Below the pieces are notes generated by a model. It ran no database searches. It saw nothing but the letters and a program-made list of their open reading frames with translations, and was not told the DNA's origin. DNA of 64,000 bases. Origin: Planctomycetota bacterium. GTDB lineage: Bacteria > Planctomycetota > JAJSAM01 > JAJVHW01. The first letter of the stretch is position 1, and every line of letters begins with the position of its first letter. This document shows positions 1 to 24,670 of this stretch, in pieces. The stretch is taken from contig CBDFJG010000004.1 of NCBI GenBank assembly GCA_965248445.1, positions 1,792,001 to 1,856,000 on the forward strand. The letters are read 5' to 3'. Made by a program: the position numbers and the translations under genes.

Positions 1-194
1 TCCAGGGCAAGGTCGGTCGCCTCGGAGTCACTGCCATGCGCAGCACCTGCCCCATGCCAGTCCTCGTAACGTTCGCCTACGTCGTCTTTCGCCCCATGAC
101 CTGCCGTATCACCGCAGCCGAAGCCGAGCGTCGAGGCCAACACAAGCGAGGCCGTCGCTAGCAGGCACCGGGCGGAGCGAGAGATGGTCGTGAT
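1..194 (-). CDS. possible lipoprotein, partial (runs off the window; start uncertain)
   Basis: Open frame just after the upstream stop reads ITTISRSARCLLATASLVLASTLGFGC..., a hydrophobic stretch ending in a lipobox-like LGFGC. No ATG or GTG precedes it. Confidence 0.3.
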   Translation of the reverse strand, partial: MTTISRSARCLLATASLVLASTLGFGCGDTAGHGAKDDVGERYEDWHGAGAAHGSDSEATDLAL

Positions 195-14913: not shown

Positions 14914-15510
14914 TCACTCAGACGGGACGAGCCGGAGCACTGCGCTGTTGATGCAGTACCGCAGCCCCGTAGGCTCGGGACCGTCCTCGAAGACGTGCCC
15001 CAGATGGCCGTCACACTTGCTGCAGACGATCTCGGTGCGGACCATCCCGGAGCTGCGGTCTGCGTGCTCGACGATGGAGGAGTCGCTGGCAGGCTTGTAG
15101 AAGGCCGGCCACCCACAACCCGAGTCGTACTTGTGGTCCGAGAGGAACAGAGCCTGACCGCAGCCCACGCACTCGTACGTGCCGGGCGTGAACACCTTGT
15201 CGTACTGGCCGGTCCAGGCCCGTTCGGTGCCCTTCTCCCGCAGCACGTAGAACTGGTCCGGCGAGAGGATGTCCCGCCACTGCTCGTTCGTCTTGGTCAC
15301 CTTCGCCTCCTCCCGGCCGTCCTGATTCGGCGCGGACTCCGAGACCGGAGTCGCGGCGCCCGGTCCCGCATTCGACTCAACTGAACTCGGATCCGCCGAT
15401 GGTGCTGTCCCGGTCTCAGGGGGCCGGCCTGTGGGTGGACCGCCCCCCGGCGACGGAGCGCATGCAGCGGCGAGCAGGGCCAGACAGGCGAGCAGGATGA
15501 CTGGACGCAT
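14914..15510 (-). CDS. msrB: peptide-methionine (R)-S-oxide reductase with lipoprotein signal
   Basis: KGTERAWTG, CVGC, KYDSGCGWPAF, HLGHVFEDGP.PTGLRYCINS. N-terminal LAAAC lipobox. Confidence 0.95.
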   Translation of the reverse strand: MRPVILLACLALLAAACAPSPGGGPPTGRPPETGTAPSADPSSVESNAGPGAATPVSESAPNQDGREEAKVTKTNEQWRDILSPDQFYVLREKGTERAWTGQYDKVFTPGTYECVGCGQALFLSDHKYDSGCGWPAFYKPASDSSIVEHADRSSGMVRTEIVCSKCDGHLGHVFEDGPEPTGLRYCINSAVLRLVPSE

Positions 15511-15663
15511 GGCGACAGATTACCTCAGACCACGTCGGTCTCACCCCGGTGCAAGCGCCGCGCAGCCTCCCAAGGAACCACTTGCGGGCGCCAGGCATTC
15601 CGTTCCCGTTACTCACGCGAATTGAACGGAATGCCAGCCCCCAACTCCCGCCACAATCCCCCC

Positions 15664-17778
15664 ATGGCCAAGCGCACGCCCCCCAAGACACGCCGGGGGA
15701 AGTCCACGCGTGCGAAGCAGAAGGCCGCCTTTGCCGCCGAGTCGTACATCAATCGCGAATTGTCGATGCTCGAGTTCAACCGGCGTGTGCTCGCGCAGGC
15801 CAGGGACGAGTCGGTCCCCCTCCTCGAGCGGCTGCGGTTCCTGACCATCTGCAGCACCAACCTCGACGAGTTCTTCGAGATCCGCGTCTCGGGCCTCAAG
15901 CAGCAGGAGCAGTACGGCGTCAAGAGCAGGCGCTTCGACGGCCTGACACCGCTGGAGTCGCTGGCACGGATCTCCAAGACCGCGCACGGACTCGTCGAGC
16001 AGCAGTACGCGCTCCTGAACGACGTGCTCATTCCCGGGCTCGCGGCCGAGGGCACGCGGGTCCTGCGGAGGGACGCATGGAGCGAGCGTGCGAAGCGGTT
16101 CGTGAAGACGTTCTTCCAGCGTGAGGTCATGCCCGTGCTCACGCCGATCGCGCTCGACCCGGCGCATCCCTTTCCGAGGGTGCTCAACAAGAGCCTGAAC
16201 TTCATCGTGAGCGTCGAGGGCACCGACGCGTTCGGGCGCGACGTCGGTCTGGCAGTGGTGCAGGTACCGCGGGCGCTGCCGCGAATGATCGCCCTGCCGA
16301 GCGGGCGGCGCGGCCGCCACGACTTCGTGATGCTCTCGTCCGTGATTCACGCGCACGTGCGCGAGCTGTTCCCCGGCATGAAGGTGCGCGGGTGCTTCCA
16401 GTTCCGGGTCACCCGCAACAGCGACCTGTGGGTGGACGAGGAAGAGGTCGAGAACCTGCTGCAGGCGCTCAAGGGCCAGCTGCCGAGCCGGCGTTACGGC
16501 GCGGCGGTCCGCCTCGAGGTCGCCGACACCTGTCCCGAAGAAGCCGCTGACCACCTGCTCCAGCAACTGCAGCTGACGCCGGACGATCTCTACCGCGTCA
16601 ACGGACCCGTCAACCTGTACCGGCTCGCGCAGTTGCACGATCTCCTAGAGCGGCCGGACCTCAAGTACCCGCCGTTCGTCGCGGGACTGCCCCGACGCCT
16701 GACGCTCGGGCGCGACATCTTCACGGTTCTGCGCATCCGCGACGTCCTGGTGCACCACCCCTACGAGTCGTTCGCCCCGGTGCTCGAGCTGATTCGTTCC
16801 GCGGCCACCGATCCCAAGGTCCTGGCGATCAAGGTCACGCTCTACCGCACACAGAGCGGATCCCCGCTCGTCGAGGCGCTCGTCGAAGCCGCGCGCAAGG
16901 GCAAGGAGGTCACGGTCCTCGTCGAACTGCGCGCCCGATTCGACGAGGCCGCGAACATCGACCTGGCAACTCGGCTCGAGGAAGTCGGCGCCAACGTCGT
17001 GTATGGAATCGTCGGTTACAAGACGCACTGCAAGATGCTGATGGTCGTTCGCCGCGAGGAGCAGCGCCTGCGGCGCTACGTCCACCTCGGGACGGGGAAC
17101 TACCACACCGGGACGGTGCGCGCGTACACGGACTTCGGCCTCCTGAGCGCGGACCTGCGGCTCGGCGAGGACGTGCACCGGCTGTTCATGCAACTCACGG
17201 GCCTTGGCAAGGTGCACAAGCTGAAGAAGCTCCTGCAGGCACCGTTCACGCTGTTCGAGACGCTGCTGCGGCTCATCGCCGACGAGCGCGACGCCGCCCT
17301 GGCCGGCAAGCCCGCGCGGATCGTCGCCAAGATGAACTCGCTGTCGGAGAGGGACATCATCGACGCGCTGTATGCAGCGTCGCAGGCGGGCGTGAAGATC
17401 GACCTGATCGTGCGCGGCATCTGCTGCCTGCGTCCCGGCGTGCCCGGGCTCTCGGAGAACATCCGCGTCCGCTCGATCGTCGGGCGGTTCCTCGAGCACA
17501 CACGGATCTTCTCGTTCCACGCCGGCGGCGAGGAGCTCGTGTACATGTCGAGCGCGGACTGGATGTCGCGCAACTTGCACCGGCGCGTCGAGACCTGCTT
17601 CCCCGTCCTCGACAAGGCCGCCAAAGCACGCGTCGTCGACGAGGGCCTCAAGACCTACCTCTCCGACAACACGCAGGCGTGGTTGCTCCAGTCGGACGGC
17701 CGCTACCGCCGAGCGAAGCCGGGCAAGTCCGCTCCGGTCGCCGCGCAGACGACGCTGCTCCAGCGCCTCGCCGAGTGA
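15664..17778 (+). CDS. ppk1: polyphosphate kinase 1
   Basis: INRELS.LEFN.RVL, NLDEFFEIRV, HHPYESF, ELRARFDE, HLGTGNY, SIVGRFLEH, SSADWM.RN. Confidence 0.97.
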   Translation: MAKRTPPKTRRGKSTRAKQKAAFAAESYINRELSMLEFNRRVLAQARDESVPLLERLRFLTICSTNLDEFFEIRVSGLKQQEQYGVKSRRFDGLTPLESLARISKTAHGLVEQQYALLNDVLIPGLAAEGTRVLRRDAWSERAKRFVKTFFQREVMPVLTPIALDPAHPFPRVLNKSLNFIVSVEGTDAFGRDVGLAVVQVPRALPRMIALPSGRRGRHDFVMLSSVIHAHVRELFPGMKVRGCFQFRVTRNSDLWVDEEEVENLLQALKGQLPSRRYGAAVRLEVADTCPEEAADHLLQQLQLTPDDLYRVNGPVNLYRLAQLHDLLERPDLKYPPFVAGLPRRLTLGRDIFTVLRIRDVLVHHPYESFAPVLELIRSAATDPKVLAIKVTLYRTQSGSPLVEALVEAARKGKEVTVLVELRARFDEAANIDLATRLEEVGANVVYGIVGYKTHCKMLMVVRREEQRLRRYVHLGTGNYHTGTVRAYTDFGLLSADLRLGEDVHRLFMQLTGLGKVHKLKKLLQAPFTLFETLLRLIADERDAALAGKPARIVAKMNSLSERDIIDALYAASQAGVKIDLIVRGICCLRPGVPGLSENIRVRSIVGRFLEHTRIFSFHAGGEELVYMSSADWMSRNLHRRVETCFPVLDKAAKARVVDEGLKTYLSDNTQAWLLQSDGRYRRAKPGKSAPVAAQTTLLQRLAE

Positions 17779-17879
17779 CCTCAGAGCGCGTCAACGTCTC
17801 GGGTGTGTCCCCGCTGCCGGTTCGTACGTCCTGATGCGGGGGCACGTGTCGCGCCCGTATACTCGCCGCGGAGAAGCTG

Positions 17880-18407
17880 ATGCACAGCACGGACACCGAG
17901 AAGTTCACGCGAGCCGACTACGCGCAGCTGCCGGAGGGATTCCCGGCATACCTGCTCGACGGTCAACTGGTTCGCGAGCCGGCTCCGACGTTCGGACACC
18001 AGGCGGTCGTCGGCGAATTGCATCTGCGTCTTGAGGCCGTCGCGCGGCACCGCGTACTGATGTCGCCGATGGACGTCGTCATCGATGACCTGAACGTGCT
18101 GCAACCGGATCTGCTCGTCTTTCGCGAAGGCGTTCGCGCGGGTCTCAGCACGCCGCCCGAGGAGATCCCGATCCTCGTGGTGGAGGTGTTGTCCCCCTCG
18201 ACGGCTCGCCGCGACCGGCGGGCGAAGACGGCGATCTACTTGCGGGCGGGCATCGCCGAGGTGTGGCTCGTGGATCCCGTGTCACGGACGATCGACGTTG
18301 TGACGCCGGTGGGCAAACGCCATCACGAGGCGGACGAAGCCGCCGTGTCGGCCGCCGTCCCAGGGCTCCGACTGATCTGGTCCGACATCGAGCGCGCACG
18401 CGCCTGA
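17880..18407 (+). CDS. Uma2/DUF820-family endonuclease-fold protein
   Basis: QPDLLV, LVVEVLSPST..RD...K...Y..AGI.E.WLVDP. Confidence 0.9.
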   Translation: MHSTDTEKFTRADYAQLPEGFPAYLLDGQLVREPAPTFGHQAVVGELHLRLEAVARHRVLMSPMDVVIDDLNVLQPDLLVFREGVRAGLSTPPEEIPILVVEVLSPSTARRDRRAKTAIYLRAGIAEVWLVDPVSRTIDVVTPVGKRHHEADEAAVSAAVPGLRLIWSDIERARA

Positions 18408-18411
18408 GTCT

Positions 18412-19947
18412 TCAGTCCAGACGAAGCTCCACACCGACCTCCGCCAGGCGCTTGGACTCCTCCTGCAGGTCATAGCGAGTCAGCGGGTGGTCGTCGAGCC
18501 AGTCGTCCGTGAACCGGATCATGAGCCCGTCCGCGAACCCCTCGACGTTCGCCGGAAGCGGCGGACGCGGATTGCGGCCGCGGTTGAGGCGCCGGCCGAT
18601 CCGGAGCAGAACGCACAGCAGCAGCGCCCGCCGCGCGCGGTCGTCGGGCAGCGACGCGAAGAGCTCCGGCAGGACCTTGCGCCGGTGGCCTCGAACGATG
18701 GCGGCAAGCATGCGCTGGTCGCCTCGGGAGAACCCCGGGAGATCCGCGTTCTCGACGAGGTACGCAGAGTGCCGCTGGTACCCCGCCCGCGCTACGGACA
18801 TCCCCGCTTCGTGAAGACTCGCGCTCCATGTGAGGAGACGCCGGTCGATCGGGTCGTCGAGGAACCACGCGCGCCGCACGTGTTCGAACAGCGCGAGCGA
18901 CGTCCGCTCGACCCGTCGCGCGTGCTCCAGGTCGACGCCGCATCGCGCGGCGAGGTCCGACACCGAGCCGTCCCGCGAATCCTCGGTACGAGGATCGCCG
19001 AGCAAGCCGAGCACGATTCCCTCGCGGATGGCGGCCTCCGACGTTTCCATCACATCGAGATCGAACGCATCGAAGACGGCCTGCAGGATGGCGACTCCGC
19101 CCGCGACCACTGGCGCACGTGTGTCGGACAGACCGTCGATCTCGAGGTGTTGGTCGTCCTTCGCAGATTGGATCGACTTGCGTACCGCGCGCAGACCGTC
19201 GTGGGTCACAGGTCCCTTCGACCAGTCGTTTGCGACGCACATGGAGCGGATCGCGAGGTTCGTGCCCGATGAGCCGATGGCCACGTTCCAGCCGAGATCC
19301 GCGAACGGACGCACCAGGGGCTCGAGTTCGAGGCGCGCAGCCAGGCGCGCCTCGGACATCGCCGACTTGGACAATCTGCCGTCACCGAAGAAGCGCCGCG
19401 TGAACGAGACGCAGCCCATGTAGAGGCTTGCGCTCGCGAGCACGTCGTGACCCTCGCCGACGATGCACTCGGTGCTGCCTCCGCCGATGTCGATCACGAG
19501 CCGGCGTTCGGGGCCCTCGTCCGCGACGTGGGAGACGTCGTGGGCAACACCCCGGTAGATCAGCCGCGCCTCCTCGTCACCCGAGACGATCTCGATCGGG
19601 TGGCCGAGGATGGTCTCGCAGGAGGAGAGGAACTCGCCGTCGTCGTCCACCTGACGGAACGTATTCGTCCCGACCGCTCGGACGTCCTCGGGCGCGAACC
19701 CGCGCAGCCTCTGCGCGAACCGTCCGAGACAAGCCTCTGCACGCTGCGCCACCGTTGTTTGGATCCCTGTTTGGATCCCGCCGCCGGCAGTCAGCCCGGT
19801 GGCGAGCCGCACGCGCTCCCTGATCCTGTCCACGATCCGAAACGCGGCGCCCTGTCGCTCGGCGACGATCAGGTGGAAGCTGTTGGAGCCGAGGTCGACC
19901 GCCGCAACGGTGCGCTCCGTGTCCGCTTGGCCGCTCGAATTCGGCAC
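18412..19947 (-). CDS. ppx: exopolyphosphatase, Ppx/GppA family
   Basis: AAVDLGSNSFHL, SGDEEARLIY.GV, IDIGGGSTE, C-terminal HD-like region (LHEAG, LPGFS). Start approximate. Confidence 0.93.
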   Translation of the reverse strand: MPNSSGQADTERTVAAVDLGSNSFHLIVAERQGAAFRIVDRIRERVRLATGLTAGGGIQTGIQTTVAQRAEACLGRFAQRLRGFAPEDVRAVGTNTFRQVDDDGEFLSSCETILGHPIEIVSGDEEARLIYRGVAHDVSHVADEGPERRLVIDIGGGSTECIVGEGHDVLASASLYMGCVSFTRRFFGDGRLSKSAMSEARLAARLELEPLVRPFADLGWNVAIGSSGTNLAIRSMCVANDWSKGPVTHDGLRAVRKSIQSAKDDQHLEIDGLSDTRAPVVAGGVAILQAVFDAFDLDVMETSEAAIREGIVLGLLGDPRTEDSRDGSVSDLAARCGVDLEHARRVERTSLALFEHVRRAWFLDDPIDRRLLTWSASLHEAGMSVARAGYQRHSAYLVENADLPGFSRGDQRMLAAIVRGHRRKVLPELFASLPDDRARRALLLCVLLRIGRRLNRGRNPRPPLPANVEGFADGLMIRFTDDWLDDHPLTRYDLQEESKRLAEVGVELRLD

Positions 19948-20128
19948 GGACCCATTGTGGCCGTGGCTCCCCCATCCCGCGTGCACCCTCCGACCGGCGT
20001 ACCCGCCCGGGGCTATCCTCGTCAATCGGCGTGCGGGGCGGCACCGCCGGCACGTCCGCAGTTCGTCGTCAGGGCCAGGTCGTCGTCAGTGCCACTTCCT
20101 TTGACGGGCGCCGGCTCATGGAGGTCAC

Positions 20129-20435: not shown

Positions 20436-20864
20436 TCAGATCAGAGCGCGCGCCGCGGCCACCACCGCGACGTAGCGAGCGGCCTTCCCCGTCGCCACGA
20501 GCACGAGGAACAGGCCGGTCGGTACGCGCAGCAGTCCCGCGGCGAACGTCAGCGGGTCACCCACCACCGGAAGCCACGCGAAGAGCAAGACCCAGCGGCC
20601 GCGCTTGCGCATGCAGCGCGCCGCCAGAACCAGCGCACGCCGCGACACCGGGAACCAGCGCCGGCGCCGCCAGCGTCGCGCCTCGCGGCCGAGCAGGTGG
20701 TTGAGCAGCGCACCGAGCGTGTTCCCCGCGGTGGCGACCACGACCAGAGGGACGACAGCGGCACCCTCGGCGGTGGCGAGCACGCCGAGGACGGCTTCGG
20801 ACGGCACCGGCAGGAGTGTGGCGGCGAGAAACGCGCTGCCGAACAGGGCAAGGAGTTCGCTCAC
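20436..20864 (-). CDS. YqaA-like (DedA/VTT) membrane protein
   Basis: LF.SAFLAATLLP..SEAVL, GNTLG, W.LLFAWLPVVGDPLT..AG.LR, GKAARY. Confidence 0.9.
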   Translation of the reverse strand: MSELLALFGSAFLAATLLPVPSEAVLGVLATAEGAAVVPLVVVATAGNTLGALLNHLLGREARRWRRRRWFPVSRRALVLAARCMRKRGRWVLLFAWLPVVGDPLTFAAGLLRVPTGLFLVLVATGKAARYVAVVAAARALI

Positions 20865-20982
20865 GCCGGCATTCGATCACGAGACCGCCGTCACGCCGCC
20901 CCGGAACAATTCCGGCAGGCCGTCCGTTCAGGGGGCAGCCCCAGAAGGGCGACATGCACATCGTCCGGAGGTCTCGCTGTCG

Positions 20983-21384
20983 ATGAAGAACGCTCTGCTA
21001 CCCGCCGCTTTGCTGCCCGCCGTATTGGGGGCACTCCTGCTGGCGGCGTGCGATGCGCGCACCGAGACCGCCGCCGGAACCCCATCCGGACCGGTCGCCG
21101 TGCAGACCCCTACCAAGCAGGCCCCCGCGTCACCGGCAGCGGATCTCGTGACCGTCCGGCTCGCCGTCTCCGGCATGGGTTGAGGCGGCTCCGATTCCCC
21201 GCAGGTGCGGGGTGCTCTCTCCGACGTGCCGGGCGTCGTGTCGGCGCGCGTTAGCTGCGCGACGGGTCGTGCAGTCTGCAAGGTCGAGCCGGGCACCGAC
21301 CCGGAGACGCTCGCCGCCGCAGTGGACGAGGTCGGCTTCACGACCCGCCTCATCGGCACATCCACCGGAGCCGCTGGCCAGTAA
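20983..21384 (+). CDS. lipoprotein with heavy-metal-associated (HMA) domain, probable selenoprotein (TGA at 21181..21183 = Sec67)
   Basis: RBS GGAGG and lipobox LLLAAC. Reads VRLAVSGMG-TGA-GGSDSPQVRGALSDVPGVVSARVS...LAAAVDEVGF in frame to TAA at 21382..21384. Confidence 0.8.
21184..21212 (+). promoter_or_regulatory. candidate bacterial SECIS element
   Basis: Stem CCCCGC/GCGGGG (21197..21212) with AGGT loop; 19 nt separate the TGA from the loop. Confidence 0.65.
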
Positions 21385-21432
21385 CTGACCCCGTCTGGGT
21401 GTCCGGAAGACCGGGCAGCCCGGCATCTTCAC

Positions 21433-21459
21433 GGAGGCCGCCCCGCCAGGGCGGCCTCC
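21433..21459. terminator. hairpin between convergent genes
   Basis: 11-bp stem GGAGGCCGCCC/GGGCGGCCTCC followed by TATTT. Confidence 0.6.
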
Positions 21460-21469
21460 GCCTATTTGC

Positions 21470-22489
21470 CTATTTGGCGAGCCAGGCGCCCACGCCGTCC
21501 GGCGGTGCAGGGAGCACGAGCGGAACGCAGTCCCGCGGTCGCGAGCCGTTCTCGTCGCCGAGATGGAGCGACATGCCCGGAGCGCCGAGACGGTCGACCG
21601 CGGCCCGCGCGATCCGGCCGAACGTCACGCGAGCGTTGATCTCGCCAACCGGGTGGAGCTGCAACGACCCCGCCGCGTCGCGATGCCGATACGAGTCGAC
21701 GCCGAATGGTCCTGAGTAGCCGAGACCCAGCAGCTTCTCGCCCACCCACGCCGCGCCGTCGAGCAGTACGGCGTGCGCCTGCGGATCGGATGGGAGCGGT
21801 TCGATCGCAGACACGGCGCCGCCGCCACGCAAGGTCTGCCGGTGGACCCCATCGATGCACACCCCGCCGGATTCGATGTGCGCCTCCACGCCGAACTCGG
21901 CCACGACGTCCATCCAGGGCTCGAAGACGAGAATGCCATGCGCAGCCACGAGCCGCTCGAATCGTGGGCGATCCTGATCGCGCAGTCGCAGACCGCTCCC
22001 GCGGAGCCGTGCGCGACCCGCCGTGCCGTGCGGCGCCTTGACTACCCAATGCCCGGTCGCCGATGCAGCCGCTCCGTCGGCGTCCAGGTGACGATGCAAC
22101 TCGCTCTCGTCTCGGATCGTCCGCGCGCCGGGCAGCGCACAACCGCGAGCTGTCGCCCATTCGAGTTGGGTCCGGCGATCGCCGGCACGCGCACTGGAAC
22201 GAACGCGGGTCAGATGAACCACCTCATCAGTGGCGCCCCATGCGACAGCCGGCTCGTCCGCCGATGCCGGAAGAGCACCGGACACGAACGACGCCCCGCA
22301 TCCGTCGAGTGCCGGCGCGATCCGGGCGGCGTCCACGGGTGCGCGCGTCCAGAGAGCATCCCCGGGTGCAGCCAGCACCGCCATCAGCGCGCCCAGTGCC
22401 GACAGACGCTCACGGAGCGGAGACTCGTGCGCCGGTAGGCCCGCCCATGCGCGCTCGCAGTCGAGATTGGCGATCAGGAGCGTCGCCAC
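21470..22489 (-). CDS. ATP-grasp-like hypothetical protein
   Basis: WVVKAPHGTAGR, FEPW, GYSGPFGVDS, GEINARVTFG. Confidence 0.7.
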   Translation of the reverse strand: MATLLIANLDCERAWAGLPAHESPLRERLSALGALMAVLAAPGDALWTRAPVDAARIAPALDGCGASFVSGALPASADEPAVAWGATDEVVHLTRVRSSARAGDRRTQLEWATARGCALPGARTIRDESELHRHLDADGAAASATGHWVVKAPHGTAGRARLRGSGLRLRDQDRPRFERLVAAHGILVFEPWMDVVAEFGVEAHIESGGVCIDGVHRQTLRGGGAVSAIEPLPSDPQAHAVLLDGAAWVGEKLLGLGYSGPFGVDSYRHRDAAGSLQLHPVGEINARVTFGRIARAAVDRLGAPGMSLHLGDENGSRPRDCVPLVLPAPPDGVGAWLAK

Positions 22490-22497
22490 GGCGGCGT

Positions 22498-23307
22498 CTA
22501 CCCGCGGGGCGCGCCGCCCGGAGCGGTCGGGACCTCATCGGCCAGCCGCGCGATGAACTCCTCGTCCATGCCGGCAGCGACCCGCGCCTCGCGATCGAAC
22601 GTGCGTCCGCGGGCGCGGGACGGCCCATGCGGCGGTCGCACGCCGCCGACGAACGTGTCCCAGTCCGACGTCTGCGGATCCTTGAATGCGCGCATCCAAC
22701 GCCACGCGAAGCCGACGTGCCGCACTTCGTCGTCGTGCACGCGCTCGAGCACGCGCGCGGTCTCCTCGTCACCGGCCTCTCGCGCCGCGGCGATGTGCTC
22801 GACCGAGAAGTCGAGGTTGGCGTTCTCGAACGTCAGGCCCATGGTGCAGACGAACTCGAGAGGAGTATGCATGTCCTCCACCTTCCGCCAGAAGTGACCT
22901 GAGACGGGCAGGTCGCCGAACCGCAGAGCGAGCGAGTCCAGGCGACCCGTGTACAGCCGGCAGTGGCGCTGCTCGTCCGCCATGATCGCCGCGCAGCCCC
23001 GGCGGAACGCAGCCGGGGCCGCGGGGAACGCGAGGATCGCCCACGCGAAGATCTCCGCCGCCTGCAACTCGTGGTTGGCGAGCGCGTGCAGGATGCGCGC
23101 GCGCTGCGCCGGATCGTGCATCCCCTCGGGCGGAGGGACGCGCACGTCACCGCCCGGCAGGATATCGAGCAATGGCGGGCGCACGGGCTCGGAGTACCGG
23201 GTCGGCGGGCCGGGGTCCTGATCAGTGAAGTCGTTCGGCGGCGCCTCGAGCTTGCCCTCGAGCGTCGTCGCTTCGATCACCCCTGCCGCGAACGTCCGCA
23301 GTTCCAT
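22498..23307 (-). CDS. DUF455-family ferritin-like (diiron) protein
   Basis: LHALANHELQA, DEQRH, ENANLD, HDDEVRHVGFA.RW. Confidence 0.85.
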   Translation of the reverse strand: MELRTFAAGVIEATTLEGKLEAPPNDFTDQDPGPPTRYSEPVRPPLLDILPGGDVRVPPPEGMHDPAQRARILHALANHELQAAEIFAWAILAFPAAPAAFRRGCAAIMADEQRHCRLYTGRLDSLALRFGDLPVSGHFWRKVEDMHTPLEFVCTMGLTFENANLDFSVEHIAAAREAGDEETARVLERVHDDEVRHVGFAWRWMRAFKDPQTSDWDTFVGGVRPPHGPSRARGRTFDREARVAAGMDEEFIARLADEVPTAPGGAPRG

Positions 23308-23362
23308 GGCGGAGAGGAGAACATGCCGTCCGCGCACCGCAGAGTCTCTACTGGGGGTGCGT

Positions 23363-24670
23363 TCAGGAGAGGACGTGACGCGCGGCGGCCTCGCTACGGA
23401 GCGTCTCCGCGAGCCGCGGGTAATACGCGTCGTCGAAACGCGACAGGTCATGCCCGCCGGCTGCCCAAGCCTGACCGCGACGCCACAACCGGACTCCGTG
23501 ATCGAGCGCCGCGGAGATGTCGTCTCCTGGTGGCGGCGCGTCCCGCGGGAGGAGGCGGCCTGCTGAGCCATAGTGGCACCAATGCCCGGCGGCGTTCGAG
23601 AGGTTGCGGCCCGAGACGGCGTATCGCAGGAAGCGGTCACGGGACAGACCGCCCCGCCCGCTGTCGCCACGCAACACGAGGTCCGCCCATGCATCCACGA
23701 ACGGACACCACACGCGCACCGACCGGAAAGGCTGATCCGTTGCGTTCAGGTAGAGCAAACGCCTGTCGCCGAGCAGCCGGCGTGAGTGACGGACCACGCG
23801 GTCGAGAGTCCGCAGGTCGTAGGCGACGCCATCGAGGTAGAGACCGTCGGGCGCGTACTCCTCGAGCACCCGCTCGATCTCGCGCAGCGGATCGCTCGCC
23901 CGGGTGTGCTGCGGACTGAGGTACAGAACGAGCTGCATTCCGGCTGCACGCACCCGCTGCGCGAGTTCGTCGTATCTCTCGCGATCCGCCGGCTCGTGAC
24001 GGCGGGTCCGCCAGCTCGCCCGACGGCCGGCGTAGCGACCGATGCGCGGCCGATCGGCCGGCGCGGCCGCGGCCCAGAAGTACGCGTGGAGCGCGAAGAT
24101 CCGGCAGTGGCGCGCTGCGCTGTCGATGACTTCCGGTCCCGGGTAAGCGGCGGCGGGAAACGGACGCGGCCGGCCCTCGTGTGCCAGAGGCTCGGCCATT
24201 CGCTGCGGCGAAGGAGGCCGTGGCGGGAAAAACGCCACCCACACCTCGTCGCCAGCGGTCGTTGTGCGCGGCCCCAGCGGATAGACACCGATGCCGCCAC
24301 GGCGGTCCAGAACGAGCCGGCTGCCACGTCGCCGCGCGCGGTACTCCGGCGGGAAGAGCGGCTCGACGCGTAGTTCCAACGGCTTCTCTGCCGAAAACTG
24401 CACCACGGAGTCCGGGCGCACCGTTGCGCGTACGTGTCCGAATCGCAGCTGCACCTCGTCGGTGTGGAGCTCGACGACGGGCGCCCCCGGCGCGGCGACA
24501 TGAACGCGCGCGAGTGGCCGGGAGTCCGGCAGGCGCGCGTCAACGTGCAGCACGCCGCTCCCGTCGAACCGCAGCACGGCGCCGGTAGTGGTGACCTCGA
24601 CGTCGGCGCCGCGGTGCGCAACGCGTTCCACGCGCATTCCCGGCCACGCGGGATCGGACGGCGCTACCAC
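23363..24670 (-). CDS. hypothetical protein, possible glycoside-hydrolase-like TIM barrel
   Basis: Overlaps the sugar transferase stop. AGMQLVLYLSP and PDGLYLDG motifs. Confidence 0.55.
   Translation of the reverse strand: MVAPSDPAWPGMRVERVAHRGADVEVTTTGAVLRFDGSGVLHVDARLPDSRPLARVHVAAPGAPVVELHTDEVQLRFGHVRATVRPDSVVQFSAEKPLELRVEPLFPPEYRARRRGSRLVLDRRGGIGVYPLGPRTTTAGDEVWVAFFPPRPPSPQRMAEPLAHEGRPRPFPAAAYPGPEVIDSAARHCRIFALHAYFWAAAAPADRPRIGRYAGRRASWRTRRHEPADRERYDELAQRVRAAGMQLVLYLSPQHTRASDPLREIERVLEEYAPDGLYLDGVAYDLRTLDRVVRHSRRLLGDRRLLYLNATDQPFRSVRVWCPFVDAWADLVLRGDSGRGGLSRDRFLRYAVSGRNLSNAAGHWCHYGSAGRLLPRDAPPPGDDISAALDHGVRLWRRGQAWAAGGHDLSRFDDAYYPRLAETLRSEAAARHVLS

Follow-up and report, generated by a model that had tools for sequence, protein, structure and literature searches.

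The reading frame that opens at position 20983 of the window, by which we mean the whole 64,000-nucleotide stretch analysed here, runs into an in-frame TGA at codon 67, and the question was whether this codon ends a 66-residue peptide or is decoded as selenocysteine (Sec, U) within a longer protein. A database look-up found the 66-residue stub alone in public collections, with no entry for the read-through protein. On the + strand, the frame extends from the ATG at 20983 through the TGA at 21181–21183 to a TAA at 21382–21384, leaving 66 further codons open in frame past the TGA, and the context at codon 67 is VSGMG-U-GGSD. The analysis indicates that 20983–21384 is a real, mis-annotated selenoprotein gene, very likely with Sec in the predicted metal-binding loop. 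Its features are the following.

20436..20864, − strand: divergent gene for a DedA/VTT-family membrane protein, 118 bp from the start codon (PF09335)
20967..20971, + strand: Shine-Dalgarno-like GGAGG, 11 nt before the ATG (from sequence; presumed function)
20983..21384, + strand: gene encoding, with the TGA read through, an exported HMA-fold selenoprotein of 133 residues (frame, Pfam, homologs, AlphaFold2/Foldseek)
20983..21051, + strand: lipoprotein signal peptide with lipobox L-A-A-C23, Cys codon at 21049–21051 (putative lipidation)
21052..21147, + strand: Pro/Ala/Thr-rich linker, residues 24–55 (low pLDDT and no secondary structure in the model; lengths vary among homologs)
21148..21366, + strand: HMA beta-alpha-beta-beta-alpha-beta domain, residues 56–128 (PF00403 above cut-off; AlphaFold2, Foldseek)
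21181..21183, + strand: predicted Sec67 (in-frame TGA), where the G-M-x-C motif has its first Cys (Sec machinery, homologs)
21193..21195, + strand: Asp71, where the family has its second Cys, giving U-x3-D versus U-x3-C (domain comparison)
21197..21212, + strand: candidate SECIS hairpin CCCCGC-AGGT-GCGGGG (sequence; z and family tests)
21256..21258, + strand: Cys92 in the beta2-beta3 turn, candidate relocated second thiol (Cys in 3/3 Asp forms)
21277..21279, + strand: Cys99 in strand beta3, probably a core residue (Cys in 3/3 Asp forms)

Within 20700–21600, no match to a sigma-70 promoter or to a terminator was found.

The genome, which is 92% complete, was searched with profiles, and selA, selB, and selD were each detected above cut-off, selD having its own in-frame TGA. 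A 96-nt tRNA-SeC(tca), typed SeC, was the sole tRNA with a TCA anticodon, so that the selA/selB/selC/selD set, for which the original prediction had proposed a search, is present in full. The gene prfB was also found, and TGA as a Trp codon was rejected on the strength of it and of the sole TCA-anticodon tRNA being typed SeC. A protein search gave matches in 40 of 101 genomes. At the position of codon 67, 29 loci from other genomes had TGA (10), Cys (12), no alignment there (2), or no local hit (5), and all ten TGA-form loci were leader-linker-HMA proteins. This alignment places the Sec, as had been claimed, at the first Cys position of the HMA motif.

GTDB genomes were further scanned with a DNA pattern composed of G-M-x-TGA and four fixed downstream positions, which matched at least 119 genome stretches. 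Among the 124 pattern matches listed, 123 continue as HMA domains and the remaining one (L080) is a chance match; the fixed positions are conserved by construction, which does not apply to the open frame, the remaining domain, or the leaders. By a crude test, 88 of these 123 listed matches begin with a hydrophobic leader, and 53 have a lipobox-like Cys. The labels of 80 matched loci were mostly Planctomycetota and Verrucomicrobiota, with Myxococcota, Bdellovibrionales, Poribacteria, and others also represented; those of the closest relatives suggest that the genome of the query, too, belongs to Planctomycetota. When the domain alignment was used as the query, 76 of the 401 genomes of the phylum sample matched at E 1e-12. 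The selA gene was found in 36 of the 36 genomes with a verified TGA form versus 289 of 401 in the phylum sample, for which the nominal chance of 8e-6 overstates the association, as kin are not independent. The latter number by itself points to frequent use of selenocysteine in the phylum. Past the TGA, the query and its ortholog L014 differ at 17/13/32 sites in codon positions 1/2/3, and the coding score is positive in the reading frame only. The proposal of a hidden selenoprotein is thus borne out by the TGA or Cys aligned in homologs, by conservation that continues past the TGA, and by complete Sec machinery.

An alternative view takes the TGA as a genuine stop, as Trp, or as a sequencing error, which would leave a pseudogene or a stub of 66 residues. 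This view draws on the stub called in databases, on Trp at the Sec position of four database homologs (P0009–P0012), and on the loss of the second Cys together with a U-free Cys paralog (L044) in the genome, but it is hardly credible when the TGA is kept in two orthologs (56–59% identity) with third-position-biased change downstream, is kept in at least 152 Sec domains, and faces the tRNA and prfB noted above. The Trp of P0009–P0012 apparently comes from a TGA translated as Trp. A base-call error at the TGA is excluded by conservation only. Sec decoding at codon 67 is accordingly regarded as close to certain.

A codon-based Sec screen passed 82 of 67,693 TGAs, and the TGA at 21181–21183, whose upstream half has a weak coding score (2.1), was not among them. 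A word-index search with the read-through protein passed none of its 443 candidates. The idea that Cys forms track Sec loss was also considered and found to be contradicted, as those genomes with exported C-x3-C forms that were checked also have selA. The genome looks selenoprotein-rich. Twelve more candidate Sec codons, picked by eye, belong to redox-type motifs such as U-x-x-C and C-x-x-U, and every one is followed by a hairpin (C4:1613192-, C3:628783-, C1:397943-, C1:614313-, C3:1771889-, C1:606506-, C4:548911-, C3:1415700-, C3:1530783+, C1:331183-, C4:366568+, and C1:471242+).

The hairpin CCCCGC-AGGT-GCGGGG was found 3′ of the TGA as claimed, with a G-containing loop at a spacing of 19 nt. 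It was rejected as stand-alone evidence: its stability was near chance against dinucleotide shuffles (z −0.03 to −0.52), 21% of 200 synonymous recodings folded equally well as the native segment, and no covariation was detected in its register among 11 sequences. The recoding test was also applied to 13 other Sec candidates of the genome (selD and 12 chosen by eye from the 82 TGAs of the codon screen) and gave 0.035 or less in 4 of the 13; most Sec candidates of this genome are weak on it. Over the family, the segment after the TGA had a mean z of −1.15 relative to synonymous recodings (149 Sec domains), compared with −0.43 when 11 Cys forms were tested and −0.28 when the segment was taken 75 nt farther downstream, the p-values of these comparisons being inflated by related sequences. 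Pairing averaged over 148 domains favoured another register, +24..29 with +33..38, at a probability of just 0.24–0.39, which indicates that no single SECIS structure is shared by the family. The arms CCCCG and CGGGG are common to all three Asp forms described below. What stands of the predicted conserved SECIS-like hairpin is hence the family-wide excess stability and the arms in the Asp forms, while its register is not fixed.

The translation beyond the TGA was examined for its fold. With U read as C, the domain scored 27.9 against the Pfam HMA family PF00403 (cut-off 24.8 bits). The AlphaFold2 model, which was calculated from a 13-sequence alignment with Sec modelled as Cys, exhibited a beta-alpha-beta-beta-alpha-beta arrangement with pLDDT of at least 90 for 71 residues. 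Domains of ATP7B, HMA7, PacS, and MerP were the top Foldseek matches at an rmsd of 1.2–1.4 Å, and the structural neighbours were copper, zinc, and mercury HMA domains. The HMA-like fold that had been read in the frame up to the TAA was thereby recovered by both the profile and the model. In the latter, Cys92 is located at a hairpin turn and Cys99 in the middle of a strand. Cys92 aligns to the Phe of V-S-F in a MerP-like protein, a position that, from MerP and CopZ structures, we take to be near the metal loop; a literature search for the V-S-F Phe position of MerP found nothing. The lipobox of the original prediction is likewise present as L-A-A-C23, judged by eye, with a Cys that is invariant in 13 of 13 aligned proteins, and both lgt and lspA were found in the genome.

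At least 165 distinct domains were gathered, at least 152 of which have U at the Sec position. The residue four after U is Cys in 142, U in 4, Asp in 3, and another in 3 of the 152 Sec domains listed, numbers that are fair for Cys versus Asp and undercount U and the others, since the scan pattern allowed only C, D, Y, and G at +4. These aligned domains give U-x3-C as the family motif, which exceeds the C-x-x-C of MerP/CopZ by one residue. The second Cys, said to be missing, is indeed absent from the motif of the query, though the residue that stands in its place at the U-x3-C spacing is Asp71 and not Ser70.

Three Asp forms were found, and more may exist: the query gene, L014 (identical as a protein to L063, so that the two enter the count as one), and the metagenome locus L216. 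They are 56–59% identical, constitute a clade (support 0.89), and, as three related forms, represent one evolutionary event. All of them keep U, D, C92 (+25), and C99 (+32). Cys occupies +25 in 3/3 Asp forms, L216 having been selected for it, and in 3/149 other Sec domains listed, Phe, Met, Tyr, or Leu being found there in 132 of the 152 listed; the corresponding counts of Cys at +32 are 3/3 and 12/149. Both of the distal Cys pointed out earlier are therefore present, of which only Cys92 is unusual, and Cys99 looks like a core substitution. A metagenome scan that required Cys at +25 gave four loci, namely L216 and the U-x3-C proteins L215, L217, and L218. The last three rule out strict compensation, in which Cys92 would appear only when the second Cys is lost, and Cys92 is thus not strictly a replacement. 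The residue before Sec is Gly or Met in the Asp forms versus Thr/Ser in 125 of the 152 Sec domains listed. When the three-sequence Asp alignment was used as the query, 1 match was obtained among 54 candidates, an ordinary C-x-x-C domain, so that this query yielded no Cys-for-Sec version of the Asp form. By sequence comparison, the query is a rare Asp variant of a wide exported U-x3-C HMA family, with a probably relocated cysteine.

Other forms of the site were seen in the family. L194, L198, L185, and L226 are double-Sec U-x3-U members. Some members are tandem repeats, and in the exported proteins L210, L203, L204, L055, L060, L109, and L163, two or three U-x3-C HMA domains follow one another, which implies several Sec codons per gene. 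The second Cys is lost with no Cys at +25 in L199 (~40-220; U-A-S-S-R) and L126 (U-N-P-H-Y). In L216, the linker (960-1020) contains an additional stretch rich in Cys and acidic residues, which includes three cysteines and may be a second metal site. The U-x3-C member L108 occurs in Oceaniferula spumae, a named species with a complete genome. The genome of the query itself encodes a Cys-form lipoprotein paralog (L044, C4:~970960-971379) with the motif G-L-H-C-E-D-D-C, also of x3 spacing, and a third lipoprotein-HMA paralog (C2:495546-496430), whose motif region has no cysteine (I-H-G-L-D-A-S-D) and whose apparent counterparts in the relatives L017, L034, and L195 have C-P-x-x-C.

Several known systems resemble this protein. 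The UxxC motif of the cation-transporting ATPase E1-E2 selenoprotein lies in its HMA domain. This ATPase (TIGR01525) is listed as a heavy-metal transport protein with UxxC; it is a large membrane protein with x2 spacing, whereas the query is exported, has 133 residues and x3 spacing, and lacks a second Cys in the motif. NF041115 (UxxU_metal_bind), named ‘putative mercuric reductase’ in PMC9312934 and PMC13188914, likewise places Sec at the metal-binding loop of an HMA fold and is the second-best NCBIfam match of the query (E 2.8e-9). Its motif is listed as UxxU with two Sec, in contrast to the single Sec and U-x3-D of the query, which has in addition a lipoprotein signal and a linker. The query scores 37 against the NF041115 cut-off of 95, and the best of 65 family members scores 70.1. 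The MerT/CopZ fusion selenoprotein NF045683 shares a CopZ-like domain, and relatives match its C-terminal part; L082 and L194 are fusions in which a U-x3-C/U domain is joined to a MerT-like membrane part, and L082 scores 66 versus the cut-off of 375. The query, by contrast, stands alone without the MerT membrane part and gives no match to NF045683 at E 0.1. None of 11 full-length relatives and none of 65 further domains and fusions reach any NCBIfam cut-off.

MerP/CopZ/Atx1 (TIGR02052; PDB 1osd, 1afi, 6ff2) have the same fold (rmsd 1.1–1.6 Å) and the G-M-x-C start, and MerP is exported too. The query departs from them in that Sec and Asp replace the first and the second Cys, the loop is one residue longer, Cys stands where V-S-F has Phe, a lipid anchor is present, and there is no mer operon. 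Its M-G-U-G-G-S-D differs from the two-cysteine site M-x-C-x-x-C, and its TIGR02052 (MerP) score is 20.7 versus a cut-off of 92.55 bits. The C-x3-C HMA lipoproteins (P0038, a Flavobacterium ‘cation transporter’, and L044) share the lipobox, linker, HMA domain, and x3 spacing in a Cys form, with Cys at both motif positions unlike the query; no experimental function for exported C-x3-C HMA lipoproteins was found in the literature. Heavy-metal proteins with Sec that have already been catalogued comprise a MerT-like protein, the P-type ATPase with UxxC, NF041115 (UxxU), and NF045683. The accessible part of the table of 119 families in PMC13188914 (2026) contains no exported HMA protein of the U-x3-C type, nor was a description of such a family found in the available text of PMC9312934, PMC1976440, PMC13326102, PMC2398784, and PMC12013277, an earlier mention being possible. 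The GOS ‘MerP’ selenoprotein entries were considered as the same protein and rejected, as PMC2398784 gives a different 33-residue sequence.

We infer all functional steps for the Sec67 lipoprotein, including metal binding, for which we draw on the fold and on the MerT-like fusions of relatives. A selenolate remains ionised and binds soft metals strongly. In the proposed mechanism, the UGA would be decoded by SelB and tRNA-Sec through the hairpin 19 nt downstream, Cys23 would be lipidated by Lgt and LspA, and the flexible 32-residue linker would let the HMA domain sweep the periplasm. The Sec67 selenolate would then capture an ion, with Cys92 and perhaps Asp71 completing the site, and the metal would be buffered or passed to a membrane partner, for which the divergent DedA/VTT protein and the heavy-metal P-type ATPase of the genome are candidates. 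The Asp71 and Cys92 pattern likely rewires the predicted metal site. The whole chain, a Sec lipoprotein on a predicted periplasmic tether that captures a soft metal (Cu(I)/Ag(I) most likely, possibly Hg(II)) via Sec67 and a likely relocated thiol Cys92, is favoured with a confidence slightly above even, which covers the complete chain and not the Sec decoding by itself, graded far higher above. The original prediction of a metal-binding or redox Sec lipoprotein is thus supported as to the Sec lipoprotein, and had been made without the wide U-x3-C family to which it belongs.

The gene neighbourhood was inspected for partners. The DedA/VTT gene (PF09335) lies head to head with all three Asp forms, and no other locus was in the DedA cluster among about 100 examined; two family-level relatives carry the DedA gene but lack an HMA gene next to it. 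This link may be inherited gene order, that is, plain synteny. The genes downstream of the query are also syntenic in L214; these occupy 21470-24670 (− strand) of the window and comprise convergent genes for a DUF455 ferritin-like protein, a weakly ATP-grasp-like protein, and a 435-aa ORF. The DedA/VTT neighbour presumably resembles YqaA/COG1238. A YqaA mutant of Rhodanobacter accumulates indium according to PMC8679861, and the YqaA subfamily is otherwise little known according to PMC10127716. In the MerT-like fusions L082 and L194, the family is tied to metal transport. At C4:587201-589537 of the genome, a gene resembling those of heavy-metal P-type ATPases encodes an HMA domain of the ordinary kind (G-M-R-C-A-G-C). 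Elsewhere in the window (14914-20025), the genes are ordinary ones: msrB, whose product begins with a lipoprotein-like leader, genes for a Ppx/GppA phosphatase and a Uma2 endonuclease, and a 718-aa ORF that we take to resemble polyphosphate kinase.

The main rival to soft-metal binding is a redox role, in which Sec67 would be a nucleophile forming a selenenylsulfide with Cys92, so as to reduce or repair oxidised thiols or to scavenge periplasmic peroxide, the HMA domain serving as a scaffold. Most bacterial selenoproteins are considered redox proteins in PMC13188914, this genome contains many Sec candidates of the U-x-x-C type, and the metal-site Thr before Sec is replaced by Gly or Met in the Asp forms. 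The absence of a conserved metal operon among about 100 family loci examined points the same way, but no conserved reductant partner was found near family genes at the loci examined either, MerT-like fusions occur in the family, and nearly every structural neighbour listed is a metal chaperone or a metal-binding domain; we consider the redox role unlikely. Doubtful to a greater degree is a single-selenolate site, in which Sec67 would need no partner or would be assisted by Asp71 or by a second monomer, the role of Cys92 and Cys99 being structural: they would form a disulfide or be neutral substitutions in the core. The two Cys do occur together in 3/3 Asp forms, and L199 and L126 lose the second Cys without gaining Cys92; against this, other members have one of the two Cys (+25 or +32) without the other, and in the model a turn Cys92 and a mid-strand Cys99 would be in poor register for a mutual disulfide.

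A bolder reading combines an uncatalogued exported U-x3-C family of Planctomycetota, Verrucomicrobiota, Myxococcota, and others with an Asp branch in which Asp would have replaced the helix cysteine and a new cysteine on the beta2-beta3 turn would have assumed its role, so that the site is rebuilt as a Sec-Asp-Cys centre undescribed on the HMA fold, possibly MerB-like in catalysis and working with a DedA-type metal exporter, and we give this combination little credence. Its catalytic element taken separately, a thiol-acid-thiol triad of Sec67, Asp71, and Cys92 for the cleavage or exchange of ligands on an organometal(loid) outside the cytoplasm, recalls Cys96, Asp99, and Cys159 of MerB and the SaoL triad kept with Sec (bioRxiv 10.1101/2022.07.06.499078) and fits the Asp kept in 3/3 Asp forms, yet it is very improbable for a protein with the HMA and not the MerB fold, with x3 versus x2 spacing, with an Asp at a helix start that may be a simple cap, and in a genome (92% complete) with no MerA above cut-off and no MerT match.

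Soft-metal capture by Sec67 hence remains the preferred reading. Sec in HMA folds has been catalogued already, which limits the surprise; the exported U-x3-C HMA family was not found catalogued in the sources searched, and U-x3-D is a rare variant of it. Since gene callers stop the family at the TGA or read it as Trp, a common exported selenoprotein is missing from annotations of environmental bacteria. Labelling may be feasible in Oceaniferula spumae, as L108 resides in a named species with a complete genome. With C-x3-C, U-x3-C, U-x3-U, and, with its displaced Cys, U-x3-D all on the same small and well-understood fold, the family further provides a natural series in which the contribution of selenium to metal binding versus redox catalysis is directly testable.
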